In this document: piece after piece, positions 2,259-31,071 of the stretch | How the letters are laid out: the number at the start of each line of letters is the position of its first letter | How positions within the stretch are numbered: the first letter of the stretch is position 1 | Origin: Pseudomonadota bacterium | GTDB taxonomy: Bacteria; Pseudomonadota; Alphaproteobacteria; Micropepsales; Micropepsaceae | DNA: 32,000 bases | Assembly: GCA_018242105.1 (NCBI GenBank) | Contig: JAFECP010000013.1 | Coordinates: forward strand, 40,650-72,649 | Direction: 5' to 3' | Translations under genes and position numbers: made by a program | The notes under the pieces: generated by a model | Database searches by the model: none | Told to the model about the DNA's origin: nothing | What the model saw: the letters and a program-made list of their open reading frames with translations, nothing else

Positions 2259-3686
2259 TTATTTCGCGGCGATCTGAAGGGCCGGGTTCTCGGCTGGTGC
2301 ACGGGCGATCGCACGCGCCGTGTCATGCGGAAACAACAAACTCGCCTTGAGGCCCGGCATATTGTCGGCAAGCTCCAGACGCGCATTGTGGAGCTTGGCA
2401 ACGGCAACCACCAGGCTGAGGCCCAAGCCCGTCCCGGGTGAATGGCGGCTCGCTTCCAGCCGCACGAAGCGATCCAGCACGCGCACGCGATCGTCAACCG
2501 GTACGCCGACACCCGTATCTGCCACAATCAGTGAGACGCCTGCGGGCGTGTTTTCGATGGACACCCGGACCTTGCCGCCTTCGGGTGTGTATTTGATGGC
2601 ATTGTCAACCAGGTTCGCCAGGGCTTGCGCGATAAGACGCTTGTTGCCGGCAATCATTGCTTCGCCGCTTGGCGCCACATCGAAGGTGAGCCCCTTTTCC
2701 TCGGCCAATGGACCGTAGAGTTCGGAGATGCCTTCCACGACGTCGCGTAAATCGATCTGCGCCATGGCCTCTCGGGCCATGCCCGCCTCGGCCTCGGCGA
2801 TCAGCAACAGCGCGTTGAATGTCGCGATCAACTGATCGATCTCGACGGCTGCGGATTCGATCTCTGTGTATTCCGCACTCTCCGGCGGCAGGCGGCGAAG
2901 CGCGGCATCGATGCGATTGCGCAAGCGATTGAGCGGCGTTCGCAGGTCATGGGCGACCGAATCCGTCACTTCGCGCATCCCGCGCATAAGCCGCTCGATG
3001 CGATCGAGCATCTGGTTCAGGCTCGTCGCCAGCGTGTCGAACTCATCGCCGGAGCCGCGGATCGGTATCCGGCGCGACAGGTCCCCACCCATGATTTCGC
3101 GGCTGATATCGTTGATCGAGTCCAGCCGTGCAATCAGGTTCCGGCTCATGAATCCCCCGCCGATCACGCCCAGCACCAGCATCAGCATGAGGCTCCATGG
3201 CAGCGTCGTGCTGAACAGGCGCACCGTCTCGTGGCGCTCATGCACATCGCGCGCGACGAGAAGCTGGAAACCGCCAGTCAGCGCAAAGATGCGGCCTCGC
3301 GCACGTCGCAATGTTGAAACGCCGCCGACGCGCCGTTCGTAGTTGAACTCGATGAAGCTGTTTGGCCGGTAAATGATCTGCGGCCAGCCATCCAGATTTC
3401 CGGCGATGGGATGGCGCATCTGATCGGTCAGAAGATACAGACTCTGCCCGCCGCGCACCGAGCGGCTGATGATGACATTGGCGAGGCCGCCCAGACCGAG
3501 GCGCTGATACTGTTCCGAAAGTCCCAATATTTCGGCATCGATTGTCTGATCGGTCTGCATGTCGAGCGCACGTTTGGTGTTCCAATACGTGAACGCGACG
3601 AGCCCCGCGGCGGAAATCGCGAAGATGGCGATATAGATAAAGACAATCCGGAACGCGAGAGTCCGGAAAAGCCTAGGCGCGCGCAC
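2259..3686 (-). CDS. Sensor histidine kinase (two TM segments, HAMP-like linker, HisKA, HATPase)
   Basis: 475-aa ORF. H-box SVAHDLRTPLNRL, N-box NLVDNAIKYTP, G-boxes DTGVGV and GTGLGLSLV. Hydrophobic segments FRIVFIYIAIFAISAAGLVAF and LMLMLVLGVIGGGFM. The start codon at 3686..3684 is GTG and overlaps the regulator stop by 14 nt. Confidence 0.85.
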   Translation of the reverse strand: MRAPRLFRTLAFRIVFIYIAIFAISAAGLVAFTYWNTKRALDMQTDQTIDAEILGLSEQYQRLGLGGLANVIISRSVRGGQSLYLLTDQMRHPIAGNLDGWPQIIYRPNSFIEFNYERRVGGVSTLRRARGRIFALTGGFQLLVARDVHERHETVRLFSTTLPWSLMLMLVLGVIGGGFMSRNLIARLDSINDISREIMGGDLSRRIPIRGSGDEFDTLATSLNQMLDRIERLMRGMREVTDSVAHDLRTPLNRLRNRIDAALRRLPPESAEYTEIESAAVEIDQLIATFNALLLIAEAEAGMAREAMAQIDLRDVVEGISELYGPLAEEKGLTFDVAPSGEAMIAGNKRLIAQALANLVDNAIKYTPEGGKVRVSIENTPAGVSLIVADTGVGVPVDDRVRVLDRFVRLEASRHSPGTGLGLSLVVAVAKLHNARLELADNMPGLKASLLFPHDTARAIARAPAENPALQIAAK

Positions 3687-4350
3687 GGATCATGTAGCCG
3701 GCGCCGCGCACCGTATGAAGGAGCGGTGCATCGAATCCCTTGTCGATCTTCGCGCGCAGACGCGAGATATGCACATCGATCACGTTGGTCTGCGGATCGA
3801 AATGGTATTCCCACACGCTTTCCAGAAGCATGGTGCGCGTCACCACCTGGCTGGCATGGCGCATGAGATATTCCAGCAGACGAAACTCACGCGGTTGCAG
3901 ATCGATGGATGCTTCCCCGCGCTTCGCGGTGCGGGTGAGAAGATCCAGTTCCAGATCGCCAACCTGAAGGCGCGTCTTCACGGCGGCAGGATGACGCCGG
4001 CGCATCAGCGCGTCGAGCCGCGCCAGCAATTCGACGAAGGCATAAGGCTTGGTGAGATAATCGTCGCCACCGGCCTTCAGCCCTTTGACGCGATCGTCCA
4101 CTTCCGATAGCGCGCTGAGAAACAGAACCGGCGTCACATTGCCGTGCTGGCGCAACTCTTCGACGAGCTTCAGGCCGTCCATCTTTGGCAACATGCGGTC
4201 CACAATGGCCACGTCGTAGGGGCGCGACAAGGAAAGCGACAGACCGATCTCGCCGTCATCTGCGTCATCGACCACATGACCCGCCTCTTTGAGGCCGTTC
4301 ACCAGGTAACGCTGGGCTTCAAGATCGTCTTCAACCACAAGAATGCGCAT
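3673..4350 (-). CDS. OmpR/PhoB-family response regulator
   Basis: The track ORF 3673..4476 was trimmed to ATG 4350..4348 (MRILVVEDDLEAQRYL...), which is preceded by AGGAG (CAGGAGTCTTTTATG). Receiver domain with DVAIVDRMLPKMDG. Winged-helix C-terminus LQPREFRLLEYLMRH...NVIDVHISRLRAKI. Confidence 0.9.
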   Translation of the reverse strand: MRILVVEDDLEAQRYLVNGLKEAGHVVDDADDGEIGLSLSLSRPYDVAIVDRMLPKMDGLKLVEELRQHGNVTPVLFLSALSEVDDRVKGLKAGGDDYLTKPYAFVELLARLDALMRRRHPAAVKTRLQVGDLELDLLTRTAKRGEASIDLQPREFRLLEYLMRHASQVVTRTMLLESVWEYHFDPQTNVIDVHISRLRAKIDKGFDAPLLHTVRGAGYMIRARA

Positions 4351-4437
4351 AAAAGACTCCTGAATCGTCAATTTCTGAAATGGGTCCGCGCCGGCGGCAG
4401 CAACGGGGGGATGGGGCCGCCACCACCGGCGCGGGGG

Positions 4438-4471
4438 CCGGACAACGCGGACTTGCGTCCGCGCGGTCCGG
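4438..4471 (-). other. GC-rich interrupted stem-loop between degP and the response-regulator gene (possible attenuator or RNA processing/stability element)
   Basis: CCGGAC-AA-CGCGGAC-TTGC-GTCCGCG-CG-GTCCGG is 13 paired positions around a 4-nt loop, lying 11 nt past the degP stop. There is no U-tract, so it is not a canonical intrinsic terminator. Confidence 0.3.
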
Positions 4472-4481
4472 TACACAGTTC

Positions 4482-6035
4482 CTATGCACCCAGTTTGATT
4501 GCCACGAAGCGCTGACCGCCCTGGCCCGTGACGAGGACCAGAACCGTGTCGCGATGCGCTGCCTGCGCGGCCGCCACGCTGGCCTTCACATCTTGCGGCG
4601 ATCGCACCGGATGGTTCGCGATCGATACGAGAACATCGCCAGGCTCGAGACCTTTATCCGCTGCGTCACTGTTGGGATCGACCTTGGTGATGACGACACC
4701 GTTCACGTTGCCGCCAAGATTGAAAGCCCGGCGTGTTTCAGGCGTGACGGCGGCCAGCCCCAGCCCCATCGCTTGCGCGGTCTCCGCGGGATGGCTGTTG
4801 CTGTGTGGAGACGCCGAAGCGACCTGCTGATCCTTCTTCGCGCCGATCTTCACTGTGAGCGTTTTGTTGTTGCCATCGCGCACGACGGTAAAGGCCGCCT
4901 TCGAACCGGCCGGAAGCGCGGCAACACGGCGTGTAAGATCGCGAGAATCTTCCACGGGCTTTCCGTTCACGGCGAGAACGATATCACCCGCAACCATGCC
5001 GGCCTGCGCCGCGGGACCGCCTGGCGAAACACTGGCGACGATAGCGCCCTTCATGTTCTTGGATCCAAGGCTCGCGGCCATTTCCGGCGTGACACTTTGA
5101 ATCTCGACGCCCAGATAACCGCGCGCGACGTGGCCATGCGCCTGCAATTGCGCCACGACGTCGTGGATGGTGGACGCCGGGATAGCGAATCCGATGCCCA
5201 CACTGCCGCCGGATGGCGAGAAGATCATCGAATTCATGCCGATGACCTTGCCCTGGATGTTGAAAGTCGGGCCGCCCGAGTTGCCGCGGTTGATCGGCGC
5301 ATCGATCTGGATGAAATCTGTGTACGGCCCGTTTCCGACGTCGCGGCCGATGGACGAGACGATGCCGGCGGTCACCGTGTTGCTGAGGCCGAAGGGATTG
5401 CCGACAGCGACGACCCAGTCGCCAACGCGCACCTGGCGGTCATCGCCGAACTCGACCGACGGCAGCGGCTTGTCGCTTTTCACTTTCAGCAACGCAACAT
5501 CTGTAGCGGCATCGGTGCCGATCAGCTTGGCGGTGAATTCGCGGCCATCGGGAAATTTGACGGTTATCTTCTTGCCGCCCTGAACGACGTGGTTGTTCGT
5601 GACGATGTAGCCGTCCTTATTGATGACGAAGCCCGACCCCATCGCGATCGCCTTGCGCGGCACGCCTTGGCGGCCTTGCCCGCCGAACTGGTTGAAGAAA
5701 TCGCGGAACGGTTCGGGAATCTGGTCGGGATCAAAGTCCGCGGTCTGCTTCACCTGCTCTTCGACGGTAATCGTGACGACGGCGGGGCTGACGCGCTCCA
5801 CCAGATCCGCGAAGGAGAACGGCGCGCCGCTCTCGATCATGCGTGGTGTCGTCGGATGCGGGGCGACGGCGAGGGGAGCAGGTTGTGGCTTCTGCGGCGC
5901 GTGCTGCTGTTGCGGCTTTTGCCCGGGTTGCGTCATCGCAAAGGCGCCCAACCCGCCGACCACCAACACACCAGCAGCCACCGAGGCGAGCAAGCGGCCG
6001 CGAAATCCTTGAAAAACCTGATCCGTCTTCTTCAT
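4482..6035 (-). CDS. degP: Periplasmic serine endoprotease, HtrA/DegP/DegQ family (trypsin-like domain plus two PDZ domains)
   Basis: 517 aa with a signal-like N-terminus LLASVAAGVLVVGGLGAFA. Catalytic motifs are TNNHVV (His), DVALLKV (Asp) and GNSGGP (Ser). Two PDZ-like regions (GVEIQSVTPEMAASLG..., GVVITKVDPNSDAADKGLEPGDVLVSI). ATG 6035 is preceded by GGAG (GGAGAAAAAAATG). Confidence 0.92.
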   Translation of the reverse strand: MKKTDQVFQGFRGRLLASVAAGVLVVGGLGAFAMTQPGQKPQQQHAPQKPQPAPLAVAPHPTTPRMIESGAPFSFADLVERVSPAVVTITVEEQVKQTADFDPDQIPEPFRDFFNQFGGQGRQGVPRKAIAMGSGFVINKDGYIVTNNHVVQGGKKITVKFPDGREFTAKLIGTDAATDVALLKVKSDKPLPSVEFGDDRQVRVGDWVVAVGNPFGLSNTVTAGIVSSIGRDVGNGPYTDFIQIDAPINRGNSGGPTFNIQGKVIGMNSMIFSPSGGSVGIGFAIPASTIHDVVAQLQAHGHVARGYLGVEIQSVTPEMAASLGSKNMKGAIVASVSPGGPAAQAGMVAGDIVLAVNGKPVEDSRDLTRRVAALPAGSKAAFTVVRDGNNKTLTVKIGAKKDQQVASASPHSNSHPAETAQAMGLGLAAVTPETRRAFNLGGNVNGVVITKVDPNSDAADKGLEPGDVLVSIANHPVRSPQDVKASVAAAQAAHRDTVLVLVTGQGGQRFVAIKLGA

Positions 6036-8518: not shown

Positions 8519-8958
8519 GTTCCGCCTTCTTTCCAGCGGCCCGAACGCTTCAGCGCATCGACGACTTCCGGCGGCATATATTTCTCATCATGCTTGGCGA
8601 GCACTTCGGTGGCGTCGAACGTGCCCGTGCCGTTCAGCGCACCCATCGCCACGATACCCTGCCCTTCGCGAAACAGATCCGGCAGCACGCCATGGAATTC
8701 CACCGGCACGGCCGCGCGGCCGTCGGTCACCACGAAACGGACATTGGCATGCGCGCCATGGCTGACGCTGCCTTTCTCCACCAATCCACCGATGCGAAAC
8801 GCAACGCCCGGCGACACATGTTTCGCGGTGATGTCGGACGGGCTGTAGAAATAAAGAACATTGTCTTTCAGCGCGCCCAGCACCAGCACAGCGCCACCCG
8901 CACCGGCCGCAAGAAGCGCGGCGGCGAAATAAAGGCGGCGGCGTTTTCTGGGATTCAT
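8515..8958 (-). CDS. ccmE: Cytochrome c heme chaperone CcmE (CycJ)
   Basis: N-terminal anchor RRLYFAAALLAAGAGGAVLVLG and the heme-binding H-x3-Y motif in LAKHDEKYMPPEV. The track start 8964 is TTG. I prefer ATG 8958..8956 (MNPRKRRR...). Confidence 0.92.
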   Translation of the reverse strand: MNPRKRRRLYFAAALLAAGAGGAVLVLGALKDNVLYFYSPSDITAKHVSPGVAFRIGGLVEKGSVSHGAHANVRFVVTDGRAAVPVEFHGVLPDLFREGQGIVAMGALNGTGTFDATEVLAKHDEKYMPPEVVDALKRSGRWKEGGT

Positions 8959-20516: not shown

Positions 20517-20635
20517 TTTCCTCCCCCGTTTACGGGGGAGGTGCTGAGCGAGTGCGAAGCGGAGGGGGCCGCCTCACGAATTCCCCCTCCGGCTCACTGC
20601 GTTCGCCTCCTCCCCCGTAAACGGGGGAGGAAAAA
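20517..20635. repeat. Nested-palindrome repeat, copy A (intergenic, between the g15 stop and the DUF2793 gene start)
   Basis: TTTCCTCCCCCG-TTTA-CGGGGGAGG + TGCTGAGCGAGTGCGAAGCGGAGGGGG + loop + CCCCCTCCGGCTCACTGCGTTCGC + CTCCTCCCCCG-TAAA-CGGGGGAGGAAAAA. The terminal hairpin modules are inverted copies of each other. Confidence 0.88.
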
Positions 20636-23600
20636 TCATGCGAAGAAAATCTCCGCCGTCTTGCCCGCGCCGCGCCCCACAACGCTGGAGAGCTGATAGA
20701 CGGTGAAGCGGAACGGCGAGGGCAAGCCGGACGGAAAATCGGCCGCGATCTGCGCGGCGGAATATGCAAGCGGCGCGGCGGCGTTGTTCAACGCGCGCTT
20801 CACCGCGCCCGCGCCGTCGAGGATCTCAACATCGTAGGCTTCGGCGGTTTCGCTCATGGGAATTTCGGTTTGATCCCAGCCGTCGCTGCCGGGCGAGCGG
20901 TCGCGGCGAATCCAGGAGAGGCGAAGATCGCCGCTGTCTGCATAGACCGCGCCCAACTGGCATGGCGCGAGAGGACGCATGCCGATGCCTTCGAATTGCA
21001 GTTCTGCGCCCCTATAGGCGGAATCGGAGATGGGCTTGCCTTTGGGACCCCACAGATATTGGAACGGCAGCGCATATTGATCCTGTGCCAGCGAAAGCTG
21101 CTGCAGCGCATTGTTGAGAACGACCGCCCGCGCGCCGGCAAGAACCGGATCGCGCATCGCGCCTTCGGTGCCCGCCTGCCCGCGCAGCAACCGCGACAGC
21201 ATCCATGTGCCCGGCGCGGTGAGCGTTGCTGCGGCGAATTGCAGGATTTCCCAGCCGCCGTCTTCATTCTCAATGGCGAGCGCATTGCCGCCCGCGAAAA
21301 CGGAAAGATCGTCCTGCGATGCCAGCGTGCCGTTATAGAGTTTGATACCGACACTGTTCACATCGTCCCAGCGCCAGGCGGGGCCGGAGAACAGATCGGT
21401 GGTGGTCTCGCCGATATCGGCGGCCAATGTGAGCGCGGTGTCGAGCTGGAAATTGGAATCCGTCGCGCTGCGCAGGATGAAGACCGAGCCGGGCCACGGA
21501 TCGGCATAAGCCGCGGCCAGCGGCGCCCACGCATTCCGATCGCCGCCCAGCAAAGGCAGATCGAGAAACACCGTCAGCGCACGGCCCGGCGCGGCGGGCT
21601 TCGCCGCCGCCAGAACGCGCGCCGCACCGGCGAATATCTCATAGATCGACGGATCGGTGGCGATGGCCTGAATGCCGCGCGCGCCGGCATCGCCGATCTC
21701 GTTGAGGCGCAGGCGGTGTGTGCGTCCGCCCGCGCTCAATTCCACTTCATCCGCCGGATCGAGCGACAGCCAGGATGGCGCGAGCGCGAATTGCGCCGTC
21801 TCCCGCTGCACCCACGCATCCTGCAACAGACGCGCGCCGATCCCGGAGGCCTGCGCCTGGTCCATCACGATGGGCAAGGTGGATTGCGCAACGCGGTCCG
21901 ACGCCGCCACCAGCCGCCGCGCTTCGGTGACGGATTGGCGGTAGTCGCCCGCATCGATGTAAACGACGCGCGAAGCCAGCGGCAGATCGGTTTCCTGCGC
22001 TCTGGTGAGCGAGAAGCCGAAGCTTGCATCGCCATCAGGCATGACGAGATCGCTTTCTTCCAGCGCCGTGGCGGCGGGCTGGCCGCGCATGCGGAACTTC
22101 ACCACGCCTTCGCTCTCCACCGCGTCGAAATGATAGGCGACCGACAGCGGCGTGATCGCATCGCGCGGGCTCATCGTGCCGGTGACGGCGAAACCGGTGA
22201 CGATGCCGGTGAGGCCGGAAACATCGTAAGCGGTGAAATTCGCGTCTTCACACAGCGCCGCAACGAGATCGGCGAGTTGCACCGCGCCAAGGCGCCCGTT
22301 CAGCCAATGGCCCAGCGTATAGTTGCCCGCATCACCCCACACATTCGACAGCGCCGGAAACGCCGGATAGGGCCGCGCGTCCCAGCACCATAGCCGCGTG
22401 TTCGCGATATCGACCATGCGGCCGGAATAAACGGACGACACCGGATTGTTGGCGTTGTTTGTCCAAAAATTCAGATGCGCTTCGAGGAAACGCCGCTGGA
22501 TGAGATCGTCCCGCGTGCCGTTCGAGTAATAGGGCAGGAAGCTTTCGCTGGATTTGGGATCGACGAAGACATTGGGCTGGTTGGAGCCCTTGTCCACCGC
22601 GGGGCATCCCAGCTCGGTGAAGACGATGGGCTTGCTCTGCGGCGCCCAATCCGTGGCGCTCGCGCTTTCGCTGCCGCCGGCGCGGTCATAATGGGTGCTG
22701 CTCCACCAGTTCCAGAAATCCTTCGCGCGCCAAACCCAAGGCTTGCCGAGCGCATCGGTGACCGGCGCGCGGGTTTGCGCGGCGCGGTCCGCATCGCTGG
22801 CATAATACCAGTCATAGCCCTCGCCGCCCCGGATGTTGCGCGTGAGATAAGCCGCATCGTGGATGCCGGTTGGGCCGTTGGCCGCGTCGTAATCCAAATG
22901 TGCCGTGCCATCGCGCCAATCGGAGAGCGGCATGTAATTGTCGATGCCGATGAAATCGATATTGGCGTCGCTCCACAGCGGATCGAGGTTGAACAGCACT
23001 GCGCCGGGCGCATCGCCCGTCTGGTGGTTGTTGTATTCGCTCCAGTCGGCGGCGTATCCGATCTTCGTGCTGCTGCCCAGAATCGCGCGCACATCGGCGG
23101 CGAGCGCCTTCAATGCCGCGACCGCCGGATAGGACGTTGCGCCGTCCCGCACCCGAGTGAGCCCGCGCAGTTCGGAACCGATCAGGAAAGAGTCCACGCC
23201 GCCCGCCGCCGCGCAGAGATGCGCATAATGCAGCACCATGCGCCGGTAGCCCCAATCGCTGCCGCCGGTCCATGAAACAACGGCGCCGTTGACAATGAAA
23301 TCGGATATCCGCGCGCCGCCGAAGAAGGCGCTCACCTGCGCTGCCGCCGCGCTTGTTTTGTCGGGCGAGCCGGAAACGCCCGGCGCGGGATCGCAGGTGA
23401 TGCGGCCGCGCCAGGGATAAGCGGGCTGGCCGTTCGCGCCGGTATAGGGATCGGTGAGCGCGTTGCCTTGCGGAACATCCATGAACAGGAATGGGCAGAA
23501 CATCACCTTCCACCCGCGCGCTTTCAGATCCGCGATCGCCTGCACGACGCTTTCGTCCGACGGTGTGCCGCCATAGGCGGGGCGGCCATCCACCGTGCTC

Positions 23601-24595
23601 ACGACATGCGCAGCATCGCGCGCGATGCCGTTGACGCTCCATATCTCGGGATAGGTTTGCTTGGTGGCGTTCTCCACGCCGGGCTTCACCGTGCAATCGC
23701 CGCAACGCAGATCGCCGCCGAACCAGCCGGCGACCAGCGATACCGCGCCGATGTTCGGTGCAAGCGCCTGTAACCGATCGAGTGAGGCGGCGATGTCGGC
23801 CACGCCCGCGGCGCTATGCGCGTTTTGCGGCGCGGTGGCGCCCGCGCCGTCGTCTGCAGTCACCACATCGGTGGCATAAACGAACTCGCCCGCGCCGGGG
23901 ATGAGCGCCACGCCGGGCAGAACATTCTCCAGCGCGCCGGGATCGGTATCGGAGATCGGGCGGACGATCTCGAACTGAAGCTGAGGTATGCGGTTGCCGA
24001 AAGCGGCAAGCGGCATGTCCTCGAACACGATATAAGAGAGGCCGCGATAGGCGGGCGTGTTGCCCTCCCCTTCGATTTCCTGGATCAGCGGGTCCTGCGG
24101 TTGTGTTTCATCGCCGGGATAGAAGCGCGTCGTGAAAGGCGACAGGTCCAGAAGATTGCCGTTGGCCCACGCACGGCCGATGGCGGCAACCCTGCCCGCG
24201 CACAAGCCAACCGCGAAAGAGATGGAATAGGCGTAATCGGTTTCGGTGACCGAACTGCCGCCGCCCTTGCCGCCCACGCTGGTTTTGGCGGTGCTGGATG
24301 TTTCCTTGAAGTTCGTCGCCCAGATGAGCTGCCCCGCCACGCGCATGCGCCCGAACACGCGCGGGATGGGCGCGCCTTCGGTGGAGGACTGGATGTTGAT
24401 GCCGCTGAGCCGCGGGCCTTGCCGCTGCATATTGGCGCCGGGCGCCAGCGTCGCATCGATCTCGCTGCCCGCGAACGCACCGATCGCGCCGCCGATGGCC
24501 GCGCCGGAGAGCGTGGCGCCGAAGATCGAGATGCCGCTGCCCAGCAGCGCATTGCCCACCGCCTCACCGGCGATGCCCAGAACAAGAGAGGCCAT
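20636..24595 (-). CDS. g15: GTA g15 homologue: large baseplate / host-specificity protein with a glycoside-hydrolase-like TIM-barrel (GTA_TIM) region and a phage-tail C-terminal part (1319 aa)
   Basis: Track ORF 20636..24664 was trimmed to ATG 24595. The N-terminus is MASLVLGIAGEAVGNALLGSGISIFGATLSGAAIGGAIGAFAGSEIDATLAPG...GPRLSGINIQSSTEGAPIPRVFGRMRVAGQLIWATNFKE. Mid-region: GVDSFLIGSELRGLTRVRD...IGYAADWSEYNNH...IDFIGIDNYMPLSDWRDG. Confidence 0.92.
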   Translation of the reverse strand: MASLVLGIAGEAVGNALLGSGISIFGATLSGAAIGGAIGAFAGSEIDATLAPGANMQRQGPRLSGINIQSSTEGAPIPRVFGRMRVAGQLIWATNFKETSSTAKTSVGGKGGGSSVTETDYAYSISFAVGLCAGRVAAIGRAWANGNLLDLSPFTTRFYPGDETQPQDPLIQEIEGEGNTPAYRGLSYIVFEDMPLAAFGNRIPQLQFEIVRPISDTDPGALENVLPGVALIPGAGEFVYATDVVTADDGAGATAPQNAHSAAGVADIAASLDRLQALAPNIGAVSLVAGWFGGDLRCGDCTVKPGVENATKQTYPEIWSVNGIARDAAHVVSTVDGRPAYGGTPSDESVVQAIADLKARGWKVMFCPFLFMDVPQGNALTDPYTGANGQPAYPWRGRITCDPAPGVSGSPDKTSAAAAQVSAFFGGARISDFIVNGAVVSWTGGSDWGYRRMVLHYAHLCAAAGGVDSFLIGSELRGLTRVRDGATSYPAVAALKALAADVRAILGSSTKIGYAADWSEYNNHQTGDAPGAVLFNLDPLWSDANIDFIGIDNYMPLSDWRDGTAHLDYDAANGPTGIHDAAYLTRNIRGGEGYDWYYASDADRAAQTRAPVTDALGKPWVWRAKDFWNWWSSTHYDRAGGSESASATDWAPQSKPIVFTELGCPAVDKGSNQPNVFVDPKSSESFLPYYSNGTRDDLIQRRFLEAHLNFWTNNANNPVSSVYSGRMVDIANTRLWCWDARPYPAFPALSNVWGDAGNYTLGHWLNGRLGAVQLADLVAALCEDANFTAYDVSGLTGIVTGFAVTGTMSPRDAITPLSVAYHFDAVESEGVVKFRMRGQPAATALEESDLVMPDGDASFGFSLTRAQETDLPLASRVVYIDAGDYRQSVTEARRLVAASDRVAQSTLPIVMDQAQASGIGARLLQDAWVQRETAQFALAPSWLSLDPADEVELSAGGRTHRLRLNEIGDAGARGIQAIATDPSIYEIFAGAARVLAAAKPAAPGRALTVFLDLPLLGGDRNAWAPLAAAYADPWPGSVFILRSATDSNFQLDTALTLAADIGETTTDLFSGPAWRWDDVNSVGIKLYNGTLASQDDLSVFAGGNALAIENEDGGWEILQFAAATLTAPGTWMLSRLLRGQAGTEGAMRDPVLAGARAVVLNNALQQLSLAQDQYALPFQYLWGPKGKPISDSAYRGAELQFEGIGMRPLAPCQLGAVYADSGDLRLSWIRRDRSPGSDGWDQTEIPMSETAEAYDVEILDGAGAVKRALNNAAAPLAYSAAQIAADFPSGLPSPFRFTVYQLSSVVGRGAGKTAEIFFA

Positions 24596-24611
24596 TTTGA
24601 TTTTCTTTCTT

Positions 24612-24647
24612 CCAAACAAAAACGGCGGCCCAATGGACCGCCGTTTT
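24612..24647 (-). terminator. Strong rho-independent (potentially bidirectional) terminator between the TPR lipoprotein gene and g15
   Basis: AAAACGGCGG-CCCAATGGA-CCGCCGTTTT is a perfect 10-bp stem. On the minus strand it is followed by TTTTTGTTTGG. It lies 22 nt after the TPR stop and ends 17 nt before the g15 ATG. Confidence 0.75.
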
Positions 24648-24668
24648 CCAAATGCGTGGTTCAAGTGT

Positions 24669-25337
24669 TCAGGGTGTCACGCCATAGCCGGCATACGTCT
24701 CAGCGACCTTTGGATCGATCGCTTTCGCTGCTGCGATGTCAGCATTGCCGTTTTGCAGGTCTGCCGTCTTCAATCGCGCGAGCCCGCGTACATAAAACGG
24801 CGACGCGGCTTTCGGATAGATGGAAAGAACTGCGGTAGTATCCGCAATCGCGGCAGAATAGTTCTTCATTCTGAATTCGACGAAGGCCCGGCTGTTCAAC
24901 GCGGCCGCGTCGCCGGGGCGCAGCGCAAGCGATTGATTGCAATCCGCCAGCGCCTGATCGAAAGGACCGCCGACCACTGCCCGGTCGAAACAGAGATTTT
25001 CGTAGATGCCCGGTCTGTTGGGATCGTGCCGACCACCCAGCGTCGTCGCTTGTTGGAGATCGGCGATGGCCAGATCGAACTTTCCGAGTTCCTGATAGGC
25101 GATCGCGCGCCCGTAACGCGGCCAGGAATAGCCCTGCCATACCATGGCCTGCGCTGCTGTGGTGCAATCGATCACGCGCTGCTCGGCGGGCTGCCCTTCG
25201 CGGCCCAGGCATCTGCCGGCGATATCCGTGGCGCCGCGCCCGACTTGCGCAAAGCCGGGCACACCGGCAGCGGCGGGCGCGCCACAACATGCAGCAAGAA
25301 CAAGAAGCGTGAGCGCAAATTCAGCGCGGTGTTTCAT
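24669..25337 (-). CDS. TPR-repeat lipoprotein (222 aa), non-canonical insert between GTA g14 and g15
   Basis: Track ORF 24669..25463 was trimmed to ATG 25337, preceded by AAGGGGGA. Lipobox signal MKHRAEFALTLLVLAACCG. TPR-like repeats include YGRAIAYQELGKFDLAIADLQQATTL and FDQALADCNQSLALRPGDAAALNSRAFVEFRMKNYSAAIADTTAVLSIYPK. Confidence 0.8.
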   Translation of the reverse strand: MKHRAEFALTLLVLAACCGAPAAAGVPGFAQVGRGATDIAGRCLGREGQPAEQRVIDCTTAAQAMVWQGYSWPRYGRAIAYQELGKFDLAIADLQQATTLGGRHDPNRPGIYENLCFDRAVVGGPFDQALADCNQSLALRPGDAAALNSRAFVEFRMKNYSAAIADTTAVLSIYPKAASPFYVRGLARLKTADLQNGNADIAAAKAIDPKVAETYAGYGVTP

Positions 25338-25404: not shown

Positions 25405-25938
25405 TTACAGCCGGAATACTGCCACGGTCTTTTGCTTCCAGAACAGCGAAAGCATCTCTTCATTCACGCACTTGTTCTGCCGCGCATGAATGAGCGTGAG
25501 CTTTCCTCCCCCGTTTACGGGGGAGGTGCCGAGCGCAGCGAAGGCGGAGGGGGCCTCCTCCCCCGTAAACGGGGGAGGAAAAGCACCTATGATCCCGCAA
25601 TGCTTGGCGGGACCGTTCGGCAGCATGCGAAAGAGCGCGGTGTCGCCGGGGGCGATGTCGCGCTTGTCGATCTCGCGCAGGTGGCGGGAGAGCGCTGCAT
25701 ATAATGTCTCCTCGCCGGTCGCTTCCGCCCAGTCCGGCGAATAAGGTGGCGCGGTTTCGGGTTCTTCGCCATGCAATTCGCGCCACACGCCGCGCAGCAG
25801 GCCCAGGCAATCGCAGCCCGCGCCTTTCACGCTCGCCTGATGGACATAGGGCGTGCCAATCCAGGAGCGGGCGGCTTCGACAATTTGCGCTTGCGAATTT
25901 TGCACGCGGAGACGCGGAGGCGCGGAGTCGTCCACCAT
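25405..25938 (-). CDS. g14: GTA g14 homologue, NlpC/P60 cell-wall peptidase, carrying a 27-codon in-frame repeat insertion
   Basis: IVEAARSWIGTPYVHQASVKGAGCDCLGLLRGVW (catalytic Cys), AKHCGII (His), LTLIHARQ (third triad residue), with C-terminus WKQKTVAVFRL. The start is uncertain: ATG 25938 (MVDDS), ATG 25950 (MTERM) or GTG 25905. The rest of track ORF 25405..26265 is read-through of repeats. Confidence 0.85.
   Translation of the reverse strand: MVDDSAPPRLRVQNSQAQIVEAARSWIGTPYVHQASVKGAGCDCLGLLRGVWRELHGEEPETAPPYSPDWAEATGEETLYAALSRHLREIDKRDIAPGDTALFRMLPNGPAKHCGIIGAFPPPFTGEEAPSAFAALGTSPVNGGGKLTLIHARQNKCVNEEMLSLFWKQKTVAVFRL
25502..25582. repeat. Nested-palindrome repeat, copy B (short form, 81 nt, intragenic in g14)
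   Basis: TTTCCTCCCCCG-TTTA-CGGGGGAGG + TGCCGAGCGCAGCGAAGGCGGAGGGGG + CCTCCTCCCCCG-TAAA-CGGGGGAGGAAAA. It lacks the second inner arm present in copies A, C and D. Confidence 0.88.
25903..25928. repeat. Left arm of a 26-nt long-range inverted repeat (three CGCGGAG units)
   Basis: CACGCGGAGACGCGGAGGCGCGGAGT pairs with the reverse complement of 26065..26090 at 24 of 26 positions. Confidence 0.6.
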
Positions 25939-25944
25939 TCTCTC

Positions 25945-26044
25945 CGTCATGGCCGCCCGCGTGACGGCCATCCATTTTCCAGAGGCGCGCGAAACCTGCT
26001 CTGCTTCTGGAAAATGGGTCCCCGGCATAAGGCCGGGGATGACG
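25945..26044. repeat. GTCATCCCGG-type palindromic repeat, copy F (degenerate, between g13 and g14)
   Basis: CCGTCATGGCCG...CCATTTTCCAGA-N22-TCTGGAAAATGG...CCCCGGC-ATAAG-GCCGGGGATGACGG. The termini CCGTCAT and ATGACGG are inverted. The right end matches the CCGGGATGAC end of copy E. Confidence 0.6.
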
Positions 26045-26064
26045 GTTGAGGGAGCAGGAAATGA

Positions 26065-26090
26065 ACTCCGCGACTCCGCGGCTCCGCGTG
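26065..26090. repeat. Right arm of the 26-nt long-range inverted repeat (three CTCCGCG units)
   Basis: ACTCCGCGACTCCGCGGCTCCGCGTG lies 5 nt downstream of the g13 stop in mRNA sense. Confidence 0.6.
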
Positions 26091-26095
26091 ATTTT

Positions 26096-26977
26096 CTAGT
26101 TTCCATATCTGCTGCCTCCATCCATCGGCTGGCTGGCGGTGGGATAGGCCAGCACCGCGTCGTTGCCGGGCATGTAGGGGAAGCCGCGGAAGTTGATCGC
26201 GTTGTTGAACTTGCTCTTGCAGGTGGCAAATTGCTTGTCGCATCCGGCGGTGATGGTGAAGGCATCGCCCGCCACGACCGCCTCGCTCATGGACTGCCAG
26301 AGCTCGATGGCGACGCCGGTGTGACGCTTCACTTCCATGGCGCGGCCCTTGTTCGCGCCGCCGGTCCACACAAGCTTGCCGCCGGTGAACCAGCCATCGC
26401 CGAAACTGCCGAGGCCGCTGACGGTGAAACGCCGCGCATCCGTGGCGCTGACCACCGCGCCGTCCGCACGGAATGCAGCGCGCGTGAGGTCGATGGTGCA
26501 GCGCGCATCGCCCAGATCGGCGTCGCAGCCATAGCCGAAGCAGCGCCCGACCGGCTGGTTCAAGATGTGGGCGAGCCCGCGCACCTCCGCCGTGAAGGCG
26601 CATACCCCACGTTTAACCTCGCCAAGATTTCCCTTGCGCATGAGCACGCGCTGGCTCACGTCGCTCCAATTCACGCGCCAGATCTCGATGCTCGCGTTGT
26701 CATAGAGACCGGCGGCAAGATCGGCGTCGTTGAGCGTGGACGACGACAGCGCGCCACTGACGGAGAGATTGTCGATCGCCAGATCGAGCAGGGACTGCAC
26801 TTCGGTGGCCGTGAAACCGGACGCGGCTTCATAGGTGACGCCATCGAAAGTCAGATCGGCATCGTGATCGGTGAAGCCTTGGGTAGCGCCATCGTTGCGC
26901 GCTATTTTCCAGCACCAGCACAAGGTGGTGGCGCCGCTATCGAGATGCGCCTGCATGCCTTCCGGCAAATTTTTCAT
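26096..26977 (-). CDS. g13: GTA g13 homologue (DUF2163 plus BR0599-type C-terminal domain, baseplate hub)
   Basis: MKNLPEGMQAHLDSGATTLCWCWKIARNDGATQGFTDHDADLTFDGVTYEAASGF... and C-terminal CDKQFATCKSKFNNAINFRGFPYMPGND. I prefer ATG 26977 (GGAG 7 nt upstream) over the track start 26995. Confidence 0.88.
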   Translation of the reverse strand: MKNLPEGMQAHLDSGATTLCWCWKIARNDGATQGFTDHDADLTFDGVTYEAASGFTATEVQSLLDLAIDNLSVSGALSSSTLNDADLAAGLYDNASIEIWRVNWSDVSQRVLMRKGNLGEVKRGVCAFTAEVRGLAHILNQPVGRCFGYGCDADLGDARCTIDLTRAAFRADGAVVSATDARRFTVSGLGSFGDGWFTGGKLVWTGGANKGRAMEVKRHTGVAIELWQSMSEAVVAGDAFTITAGCDKQFATCKSKFNNAINFRGFPYMPGNDAVLAYPTASQPMDGGSRYGN

Positions 26978-27004
26978 TTCATGCTCCATTGTCATGGTGA
27001 GAGA

Positions 27005-28946: not shown

Positions 28947-28963
28947 TTGGTTTCCTCCATAAA

Positions 28964-29092
28964 TTCCCCCCCCGTTTACGGGGGAGGTGCTGAGCGCGCA
29001 CCTCGCGCGCGAAGTGGAGGGGGACTGTCGCGCGGGCGGCCCCCTCCAGCTCACCTCGTTCGCGTCCTCCCCCGTAAACGGGGGAGGAAAAA
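28964..29092. repeat. Nested-palindrome repeat, copy C (intergenic, between the g9 stop and the g10 start)
   Basis: TTCCCCCCCCG-TTTA-CGGGGGAGG + TGCTGAGCGCGCACCTCGCGCGCGAAGTGGAGGGGG + loop + CCCCCTCCAGCTCACCTCGTTCGCG + TCCTCCCCCG-TAAA-CGGGGGAGGAAAAA. Confidence 0.88.
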
Positions 29093-29509
29093 TCATGCGC
29101 TTGTGAACGCGAGGGCACCCGCCGACGCCAATGTCATGCTGAGCTTCAACTCCCCGTCATACGGCCCGTCATAGGCGAGCGCGGTGAGCTTGAACGGGCC
29201 TTGCACCGTGCCGAAGCTCGGGATGACGATCTGATAATTGGTCAGCGCCTGGTTGAAGAACGCCGTTCGCAGCGCCGCGTCCGACACGGCATCCTTGAAC
29301 ACGCCGCTGCCGGAGATGGACGCGGATTTCACGCCGCCGCCATCCAGCAGTTCGCGCCACTGATCGGCGGAGTCCGCATTGGTGACGTCCACCGTCTGCG
29401 CATTGAACGACAGCGTCGTGGCGCGCAATCCGGCGACGGTGGTGAAATTCTCCGGCGACGCACCATCGCCGATCTTGATGAGCAGGTCTTTGCCTTTTTG
29501 AGCAGTCAT
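29093..29509 (-). CDS. g9: GTA g9 homologue, major tail (tube) protein, TP901-1 family
   Basis: Track ORF 29093..29530 was trimmed to ATG 29509: MTAQKGKDLLIKIGDGASPENFTTVAGLRATTLSFNAQTVDVTNADSADQWRELLDGGGVKSASISGSGVFKD. Confidence 0.88.
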   Translation of the reverse strand: MTAQKGKDLLIKIGDGASPENFTTVAGLRATTLSFNAQTVDVTNADSADQWRELLDGGGVKSASISGSGVFKDAVSDAALRTAFFNQALTNYQIVIPSFGTVQGPFKLTALAYDGPYDGELKLSMTLASAGALAFTSA

Positions 29510-29534: not shown

Positions 29535-29643
29535 TGTCATCCCGGAAGCGGAGCGCAGCGAAGCTATCCGGGACCCATTGTGCCGCGTGCGCGATGGGTC
29601 CCGGCTCGGCGCGATGCGTCCGCATCGCTTGGCCGGGATGACA
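29535..29643. repeat. GTCATCCCGG-type palindromic repeat, copy E (intergenic, g8-g9)
   Basis: Perfect 11-bp termini TGTCATCCCGG...CCGGGATGACA. Inner stems GGGACCCAT-N15-ATGGGTCCC and GCGATGCG-TCC-GCATCGC. It contains the 13-mer GAGCGCAGCGAAG, which is also present in copy B of the other family. Confidence 0.72.
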
Positions 29644-30930: not shown

Positions 30931-31071
30931 TTTCCTCCCCCGCTTTGCGGGGGAGGTGCCGAACGAATGTGAGGCGGAGGGGGTGGCTGCGGCGAAGCAA
31001 GTTCTGCTCTGCTATCGCCACCCCCTCCACCGCTTCGCGGTCCCCCTCCCCCGTAAAACGGGGGAGGAAAA
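30931..31071. repeat. Nested-palindrome repeat, copy D (intergenic, between the g5 stop and the g6 start)
   Basis: TTTCCTCCCCCG-CTTTG-CGGGGGAGG + TGCCGAACGAATGTGAGGCGGAGGGGG + ~40-nt loop + CCCCCTCCACCGCTTCGCGG + TCCCCCTCCCCCG-TAAAA-CGGGGGAGGAAAA. Confidence 0.88.

Follow-up and report, generated by a model that had tools for sequence, protein, structure and literature searches.

How can the gene of a cell-wall peptidase hold a palindromic DNA repeat between two of its catalytic codons and still keep its reading frame? The question is raised by a 32,000-nucleotide stretch of contig JAFECP010000013.1 (hereafter the window, meaning the whole stretch of DNA that was analysed), in which a gene cluster of the type known from the gene transfer agent (GTA) of Rhodobacter capsulatus (RcGTA) includes g14, coding for an NlpC/P60 peptidase. 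The initial annotation had described here an in-frame insertion resembling repetitive extragenic palindromic (REP) sequences, and on this point it was borne out. The segment, designated copy B of a repeat family that we named F1, is 81 nt long and palindromic, is free of stop codons in the g14 frame, and is flanked by the codons of the catalytic residues His113 and His151; g14 indeed reads on the minus strand as ...PNGPAKHCGIIGA-FPPPFTGEEAPSAFAALGTSPVNGGGK-LTLIHARQNK...WKQKTVAVFRL*, with copy B in the middle, and the open reading frame (ORF) runs on past the repeat to the normal C-terminus. Judging from the sequence, g14 is most likely read through the insert, the resulting loop being tolerated by the enzyme.

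The strict palindrome of copy B comprises 80 nt (25502-25581), its two arms of 25 nt (25502-25526 and 25557-25581) being 100% complementary, and the segment counts a whole number of codons because an 81st base is added to the palindrome. When folded as RNA, it reaches -64.7 kcal/mol (z = -7.4 against shuffled sequences). Copy B lacks about 40 nt, corresponding to one inner arm, and is thus a deletion derivative of F1; with both terminal hairpins included it measures 74 nt from end to end, and only one of the 31 complete copies is shorter. In the window it is flanked by GCT...GCT, a feature not shared by L081 and L082, two independent assemblies with the same family at the same codon of g14.

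The proposal that excision of the 81 nt brings back the usual NlpC/P60 spacing did not hold. With the insert, the spacing from His to His is 38; excision in silico reduces it to 11, against 15 in every uninserted orthologue (e.g., HCGILASNPQGLTLIH), where a turn of five residues (e.g., SNPHG or EKDGA) lies between KHCGIxx and LTLIHAR; excision of the 81 nt therefore leaves the turn four residues too short. A tblastn comparison with 11 related genomes opened a gap of 23 residues at the insert, not of 27. The net gain from copy B is hence 23 amino acids (69 nt), 12 nt of the original five-codon turn being gone, and the present allele is best read as the product of three events, namely the insertion, the loss of 12 nt of target sequence and a deletion within the element. 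An old long loop typical of the family was also considered and rejected: P0007 and P0008, the closest proteins by core sequence (80% identical), have the five-residue turn, and the insert, being a multi-copy DNA repeat, is therefore not such a loop.

All three catalytic residues, C44 (in the numbering of P0001, the database entry for the window protein), H113 and H151, are present in g14 and fall in columns that are invariant or nearly so in 120 homologues, and the other residues invariant in the family are likewise intact in this comparison. With the TIGR02219 profile (cut-off 81.9), g14 as it stands scored 151 bits, rising to 161 bits once the insert was taken out; the alignment broke off at residue 122 when the insert was present and ran end to end (positions 2-132 of 134) only after removal of the 27 codons. 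No match was obtained for the window protein in a Pfam scan, either with the insert or after its removal, PF00877 remaining below threshold, and PF00877 is precomputed for many close g14 homologues. A sequence search of the PDB with g14 retrieved nothing at E <= 0.01. The peptidase is not resolved in the structure of RcGTA (PMC7296036).

Models were built with AlphaFold (AF2) on the alignment of 120 sequences. In the model of the uninserted P0007, the His strand (E100-109) pairs with the strand of the third catalytic residue (E112-118) through a two-residue turn. The model of the window protein (predicted local distance difference test, pLDDT, of 72) has the same beta-hairpin, with strands E113-120 and E146-153, while residues 121-145 are coil with pLDDT of about 45-55. 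The insert is thus predicted to replace the distal turn of the hairpin with low-confidence coil, the core fold and the hairpin pairing being unchanged in the models. This agrees with a tolerated position and does not agree with the term active-site loop used in the initial annotation, which overstates the placement of a segment modelled at the distal tip of a beta-hairpin. The best matches of the g14 model in a Foldseek search of the PDB were MepS, LytE, Spr and CwlO (probability 1.0, E values from 1e-4 to 1e-3).

Selection on the coding sequence was estimated by comparing the window with L081. The ratio of nonsynonymous to synonymous substitution rates (dN/dS) was 0.17 upstream of the insert (96 codons) and 0.15 downstream (31 codons). 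The value of the C-terminal part indicates that the region beyond the repeat is evolving as protein, which favours read-through and speaks against a pseudogene. Rhodobacter capsulatus g14 breaks down peptidoglycan, an endopeptidase activity shown only for the RcGTA protein, its deletion gives tail-less heads, and its product is believed to occupy the tail lumen as a monomer (PMC7296036); selection on the g14 frame would be accounted for by these two requirements, for tails and for peptidoglycan degradation. Overall, we assign a probability of roughly 0.7 to the reading in which a selfish palindrome invaded g14, frame-restoring deletions followed, and the translated loop is tolerated.

The same turn is occupied well beyond the window. 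An alignment of orthologues had been proposed in the initial annotation with the expectation that the insertion would be absent elsewhere; on the contrary, 47 of the 120 closest g14 homologues (39%), which are Rhizomicrobium-like, carry repeat-derived inserts of at least six extra residues at this turn, whole turns reaching up to 66 residues. Repeat-free orthologues with a loop of similar length had been named as evidence to the contrary; the long loops found are DNA repeats themselves, and their presence therefore extends the idea rather than refuting it. When 202 g14 sequences (120 proteins and 82 loci) were aligned to a hidden Markov model (HMM) of the uninserted members, internal insertions of at least six amino acids were found at the His-His turn in 52 sequences. 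The only other internal place was the loop before the His strand, in four sequences (eight entries, since each insert is split over two adjacent columns), and no insertion of this size was found elsewhere in the 141 core columns. Likewise, no repeat-derived insertion was found in g12, g13 and about 1000 amino acids of g15 across 17 related loci (each gene compared in 13-17 of them).

The inserts belong to many unrelated peptide and DNA families, at least five, with borders that differ by a few codons. They include FPPPFTGE...SPVNGGGK, PPPERGRSIREADRVG...SLFKGG, TSPLWGGRR...STSPQGGG, SPRPHACGGEG...PPRGGEG, ATASLLERG (sometimes in tandem), PLEGGSKRGTRFG and others, and lie before an intact EKDGA turn, in its middle, or in place of it. 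The inserts of L015, L203 and L204 form strong hairpins (from -77 to -132 kcal/mol), and the short one of L001 reaches -30 kcal/mol. Further copies of the L015, L204 and L001 inserts occur in their own or in related loci, mostly at GTA gene junctions, the L203 insert being single-copy. With regard to distribution, among 80 species-representative genomes of Alphaproteobacteria an insert of at least 12 amino acids at the turn was found only in three Rhizomicrobium and one Rhodomicrobiaceae, and 8 of 96 representatives of clusters at 50% identity carried one by an HMM-based count; the insertions are concentrated in the clade of the window. Taken together, the g14 turn is probably a recurring and tolerated landing site for selfish palindromic DNA in related soil bacteria.

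At the second internal site, the loop between FRM and PRGPAKHCG, an insert of 12-13 residues of the 'ATASLHERG' family was observed in L015 (about 3270-3310), L082/P0015 and P0076. In other homologues, members of this family are found at the His-His turn as well, in some cases as 14-residue units in tandem (P0079).

A further in-frame site was found immediately after the start of g14. The database annotation (P0001) places the start at the ATG at 25938, giving a protein of 177 amino acids, and this lies downstream of the ancestral start codon (Table 1), which is preceded by a Shine-Dalgarno sequence, GGAGG, at 26119-26115, 8 nt upstream of the ATG. From the ancestral start the frame of the window is open through a nested compound palindrome, with outer arms at 25903-25928 and 26065-26090 and an inner element at 25944-26045, which gives this g13/g14 junction a predicted folding energy of -118 kcal/mol (z = -9.4). 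The site was compared in the window and in loci from L001-L015, L081, L082, L203 and L204, and 13 of the 16 related loci had repeat insertions. Between the g13 stop codon and the codon of the core Trp the distance is 22 or 25 nt in empty relatives; owing to repeats inserted after about codon 5, it is 58 to 232 nt in the 13 others. In all 13 the difference from 25 is a multiple of three and the frame is free of stops, with net gains from 33 to 207 nt, the last being that of the window. Were the insert lengths unrelated, such an outcome would have a chance of (1/3)^13, and hardly any two of the inserted sequences are alike. When the window protein is read from the ancestral start, repeats account for 92 of its 233 residues.

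As to the repeat itself, its REP-like and multi-copy nature was verified. The 22-nt terminal hairpin CCTCCCCCGTTTACGGGGGAGG matched the window 12 times (both strands, up to three mismatches) against 0 expected, and four copies of F1, A to D, were therefore defined, of which A, C and D measure 118-140 nt and are all intergenic; the same hairpin matched at least 120 metagenome stretches. The architecture of F1 consists of two inverted hairpins of 25 nt around two inner arms, the unit being a hairpin of 22-25 nt, and the 31 complete copies range from 64 to 169 nt. In-frame copies in coding sequence were sought with a screen based on GC content at third codon positions, with loosened limits, followed by reading of the translations. 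Among the matches listed, about 7 of 116 testable copies (about 6%) lie in frame inside recognisable genes and most are intergenic. Outside g14, host genes identified solely by reading conserved motifs in the translations are PriA-like (L098), oxoprolinase/hydantoinase-like (L106), CoA-transferase-like (L120), similar to ATP-dependent DNA ligase (L141), HrpB-like (L154) and terminase-like (L162).

Around the 31 complete copies neither a consistent target-site duplication nor a conserved target motif was found, and neither the GTAG/CGTC tag nor its complement was present in TTTCCTCCCCCGTTTACGGGGGAGG or its immediate flanks. A search for IS200-type or REP-associated tyrosine transposase (RAYT) genes retrieved none among 7563 ORFs (window and related loci, about 0.8 Mb), although it was a weak test, made by phmmer with an IS200 TnpA sequence as query. 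Scanning of 20-32 kb of the window against Rfam gave no family; sub-threshold matches to generic long hairpins (plant miRNA precursors) were rejected as meaningless. Hairpins of -70 kcal/mol or below per 120 nt occur in five places, at about 20.5, 25.5, 29.0, 29.55 and 30.95 kb, all in the GTA part (20.5-32 kb) and none in 1-20.5 kb. GC content, at 0.62 and 0.64, is alike in the GTA part and the remaining 20 kb, which carries ordinary genes. Where GTA genes adjoin, palindromic repeats seem to be enriched.

Copies A and C were seen to share nine more bases outside the palindrome (AATCATGCG; window 20626-20642 and 29083-29099). These bases hold the stop codon and the last Ala codon of g15 and of the major tail gene, two unrelated genes, and F1 may have supplied, or overwritten, their 3' ends. 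A palindromic element of another family (29554-29618; arms of 30 nt, 73% complementary) lies between the tail-completion and the major tail genes.

Table 1. Location in the window of g14 with its catalytic codons, of its neighbours and of the palindromic repeats.
Feature	Position	Strand	Remarks
g14, NlpC/P60 peptidase	25405..26106	-	233 aa from ancestral ATG at 26106-26104; stop codon 25405-25407
g13 (Phage_BR0599 family)	26096..26995	-	directly upstream of g14; stop codon overlaps ancestral g14 start
g15 (megatron / host-specificity protein)	20636..24664	-	without repeat-derived insertions
Catalytic Cys codon (C44 in P0001 numbering, motif GCDCLG)	25807..25809	-	column invariant in 120 homologues
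Catalytic His113 codon (motif KHCG)	25600..25602	-	8 residues ahead of the insert
His151 codon (motif LIHAR), third catalytic residue	25486..25488	-	5 residues past the insert
Copy B of palindromic repeat family F1	25502..25582	-	81 nt, in frame in g14, encodes FPPPFTGEEAPSAFAALGTSPVNGGGK
Nested compound palindrome, two other repeat families	25903..26090	-	in frame after first 5 codons of g14
Copy A of F1	20517-20634		intergenic, directly after g15 stop; -87.6 kcal/mol
Copy C of F1	28963-29091		intergenic, between major tail gene (stop 29093) and next gene (start 28946)
Copy D of F1, diverged variant	30931-31070		intergenic, from capsid gene (stop 31080) to head-tail connector gene (start 30923)

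How the allele arose may be pictured as follows. A non-autonomous, GC-rich F1 repeat, similar to the REP doublets forming hairpins (REPINs) or to MITEs (miniature transposable elements with inverted repeats), would insert into the hairpin-turn codons of g14, and selection for an in-frame, essential C-terminal third would keep only frame-restoring derivatives. Read-through would then yield an intact NlpC/P60 core with a flexible Pro/Gly-rich loop at the hairpin tip, off the catalytic centre, this loop being presumably tolerated rather than useful. In Rhizomicrobium-like lineages, with GTA clusters that appear heavily colonised by repeats at gene junctions, g14 would offer three permissive places (after the start codon, in the loop before the His strand and at the His-His turn), where several families would land or replace one another, perhaps because hairpins already in place draw in new copies. 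Read-through of the insert-bearing g14 would give peptides spanning GIIGAFPPPFTGE... and ...NGGGKLTLIHAR.

The number of independent events behind this pattern depends on how the borders are read. The window, L081 and L082 share identical borders, that is, one residue, then TTTCCTCC...GGAGGAAA, then CTCAC, and by protein sequence the same borders are found in P0003 and in carriers of the related family F2. Orientation, as told from the two distinguishable inner arms, is the same in the window and L082 and opposite in L081. Between the window and L081 copies, the terminal hairpins show 1 difference in 50 positions, against a flanking synonymous divergence (dS) of 0.7. It is possible that recent and very site-specific insertions took place; it is also possible that one old insertion was held similar by gene conversion and flipped by recombination between the 25-nt inverted ends. 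The inner arm of copy B matches those of the other copies at 24-28 of 30 positions in all cases and therefore does not separate shared descent from independent insertion; a special closeness of copy B to the L081 copy, considered at one stage, was dropped on the same ground. If an event is taken as independent only where the borders differ and the sequence is unrelated, at least five remain. One clade was found in which nearly every member is inserted, with families that differ.

Several points weigh against a tolerated loop acquired by repeated invasion. The hairpin of -65 kcal/mol in the mRNA could impede translation, and both the production and the activity of g14 are here deduced from sequence. 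The dN/dS values average the whole time since the split of the window and L081 and are blind to a very recent loss of function, and the exact window allele comes from one metagenome-assembled genome only. The neighbour-joining tree of the core places the window g14 among uninserted sequences and implies by parsimony about 20 changes of presence or absence, but it was built from about 130 columns and its resolution is poor. Identical F1 and F2 borders in several lineages mean that there were fewer independent events than inserted sequences, and part of the pattern may come from one old insertion with in-situ replacement, inversion or recombination. Moreover, neither a target motif or target-site duplication around the 31 copies nor a transposase in the DNA searched was found to explain the hotspot.

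Active targeting of g14, in which the repeats or their transposase would recognise a feature of its DNA or a pre-existing hairpin, would explain why the hotspot is specific to this gene, about 1500 amino acids of neighbouring proteins being without inserts, why the borders of F1 and F2 coincide in four or more lineages, with F1 in both orientations, why the element at 25944-26045 is nested in the loop of another palindrome, and why different families fill one clade almost entirely. Nevertheless, the complete copies gave no conserved motif or duplication, the borders differ between families by a few codons, and shared descent with gene conversion would also give identical borders, so that we consider targeting unlikely, although it deserves to be kept in view. 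Distinctly more speculative is an extended version of it, in which g14 would be a homing site, several palindrome families being drawn to two or three fixed positions, perhaps into resident hairpins, and the loops and mRNA hairpins being used by the cell. If so, they could, for instance, adjust the dose of the tail-lumen peptidase, its packaging or its release, or else GTA operon expression, and selfish palindromes would supply rapid, site-directed variation to a domesticated virus-like particle. A role at the RNA or DNA level, with hairpins kept to stabilise or process the mRNA, to pause ribosomes or to set the ratios of tail proteins and with the peptide as a by-product, also appears improbable. 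REPs stabilise upstream mRNA in operons, the hairpins in g14 and at the g13/g14 junction are very stable, the strong hairpins of the window are confined to its GTA part (five against none), and the near identity of the window and L081 terminal hairpins, set against the flanking dS, fits constraint on the nucleic acid. Recent transposition or gene conversion, however, explains this conservation equally well; the same site holds unrelated families of 7 to 66 amino acids, some weakly folding (L011, -9.3 kcal/mol), which is not as a conserved RNA function predicts; about 60% of the close orthologues have no insert at all, and Rfam gave no match in 20-32 kb.

Inactivation of the peptidase, g14 being translated or a young pseudogene that is retained for tail assembly or sits in a decaying GTA cluster, has in its favour that the insert separates two catalytic residues, widening their spacing from 15 to 38, that well over a third of the protein read from the ancestral start (92/233 residues) derives from repeats, and that a structural role could hold the frame open without catalysis, RcGTA g14 being needed for tail assembly (PMC7296036). 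The intact catalytic Cys, His and His and other family-invariant residues, dN/dS values of 0.15-0.17 on both sides of the insert, the unchanged core fold and hairpin pairing predicted by the models, and neighbouring GTA genes that are intact and 62-90% identical at the amino acid level to related loci argue otherwise; occupation of the site in 39% of close homologues would also be unlikely if every insertion killed the enzyme, and we regard inactivation as quite improbable. Finally, it is hardly credible that the repeat was collapsed into the wrong place during assembly of this genome: repeats often cause misassembly and the exact protein is known from one contig, but L081 and L082, assembled independently from other samples, have the same family at the same codon, other assemblies hold other families at that turn, and there is no break at all in the frame or in the flanking codons. 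Thus, of the three outcomes envisaged in the initial annotation, the tolerated loop is the one best supported, by the downstream dN/dS, inactivation is disfavoured, and an RNA-level effect might be added to the loop; both an RNA-level role and site targeting are compatible with a tolerated, selfish insertion.

With respect to known systems, F1 is likened by its behaviour to the Rickettsia palindromic elements (RPEs; Ogata et al. 2000, 2002), which are described in PMC10969869 as short alphaproteobacterial palindromic repeats with many copies per genome, a sizeable fraction of them in frame in unrelated genes, where they add a peptide compatible with the fold. Here, in-frame F1 copies were found in g14 and in the PriA, DNA ligase, HrpB, oxoprolinase and CoA-transferase genes, and for g14 the models suggest a surface-loop insertion, at a beta-hairpin turn, that would be compatible with the fold. 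The hosts of F1, unlike those of RPEs, are free-living GC-rich soil bacteria (Rhizomicrobium-like) rather than organisms with reduced intracellular genomes; the two kinds of element are not expected to resemble each other in sequence; F1 is mostly intergenic, with only about 6% of the listed matches in coding sequence; and several unrelated families share one codon position in orthologues of the small g14. To our knowledge, such sharing of a codon position is not a described feature of RPEs, and in-frame 'coding palindromes' are textbook knowledge only for Rickettsia. The coding palindromes reported here are a known kind of process; what stands out is an always-in-frame hotspot for multiple families in a GTA structural enzyme.

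In architecture F1 is closest to REPINs or MITEs and fails one defining feature of each, namely the REP end tag and the MITE target-site duplication. Similarly to REPINs (Bertels and Rainey 2011, PMC3116915), F1 has two inverted short hairpin units that form one long hairpin, is mainly extragenic, and occurs in tens to hundreds of copies as conserved sequence populations without target-site duplication. The F1 hairpin, on the other hand, is devoid of the GTAG/CGTC end tag of REP super-families (PMC3733652), the weak test mentioned above detected no RAYT-like gene in the 0.8 Mb or so of DNA searched, and F1 is also present in coding sequence, REPINs being described as extragenic (PMC3116915). 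With MITEs (ERIC, BOX and Anabaena MITEs; PMC10969869), F1 shares the size range (64-169 nt), the non-coding origin, terminal inverted repeats, perfect over 25 nt in F1, and occasional in-frame fusions with host ORFs, and it differs from them in having no target-site duplication in 31 complete copies. As for the enzyme, the window g14 resembles RcGTA g14 (Rcc01697) in its TIGR02219 family, its position between g13 and g15 and a core of about 140-150 residues, whereas RcGTA g14 has no insert and the window protein is longer by 23 residues at the His-His turn and, should translation begin at the ancestral start, by another 69 after codon 5.

The process known from Rickettsia is thus met in free-living, GC-rich soil Alphaproteobacteria and on a structural enzyme of a GTA. 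The orthologues make up a natural series, with 0 to 66 extra residues at the turn and 0 to 69 behind the start codon, the frame being kept in every case; the series bears on the insertion tolerance of an NlpC/P60 peptidase and tail-lumen protein, on frame repair by selection after repeat invasion and on the homing of palindromes to existing hairpins. In practical terms, gene callers begin many of these g14 genes downstream of where they ancestrally start, and the domain escapes Pfam when g14 bears the repeat.

The RcGTA-type head-tail cluster occupies the minus strand of the window and runs downward from about 32 kb in the order capsid, connector, tail genes, tape measure, g12 (DUF2460), g13 (BR0599), g14 and g15 (GTA_TIM). 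The gene order of the window ORFs agrees with the genes called in L081, L203 and L204, and the relatives of the window g14 protein are mostly from Rhizomicrobium. The GTA cluster in this clade is unusually open to insertions. Between g14 and g15 lies a gene for a TPR-like lipoprotein (24669-25337, minus strand; signal peptide ending in LAAC), a gene outside the classical RcGTA order; homologues with 35-45% identity were seen at the same place in L203, L204 and L082, and in L081 g15 directly follows g14 without it. In L011, g14 is separated from g15 by about 2.5 kb (3450-5977), and in L204 genes of the DUF559 family (Vsr-like endonuclease) are inserted between GTA genes at 1033-1551 and 8639-8923.

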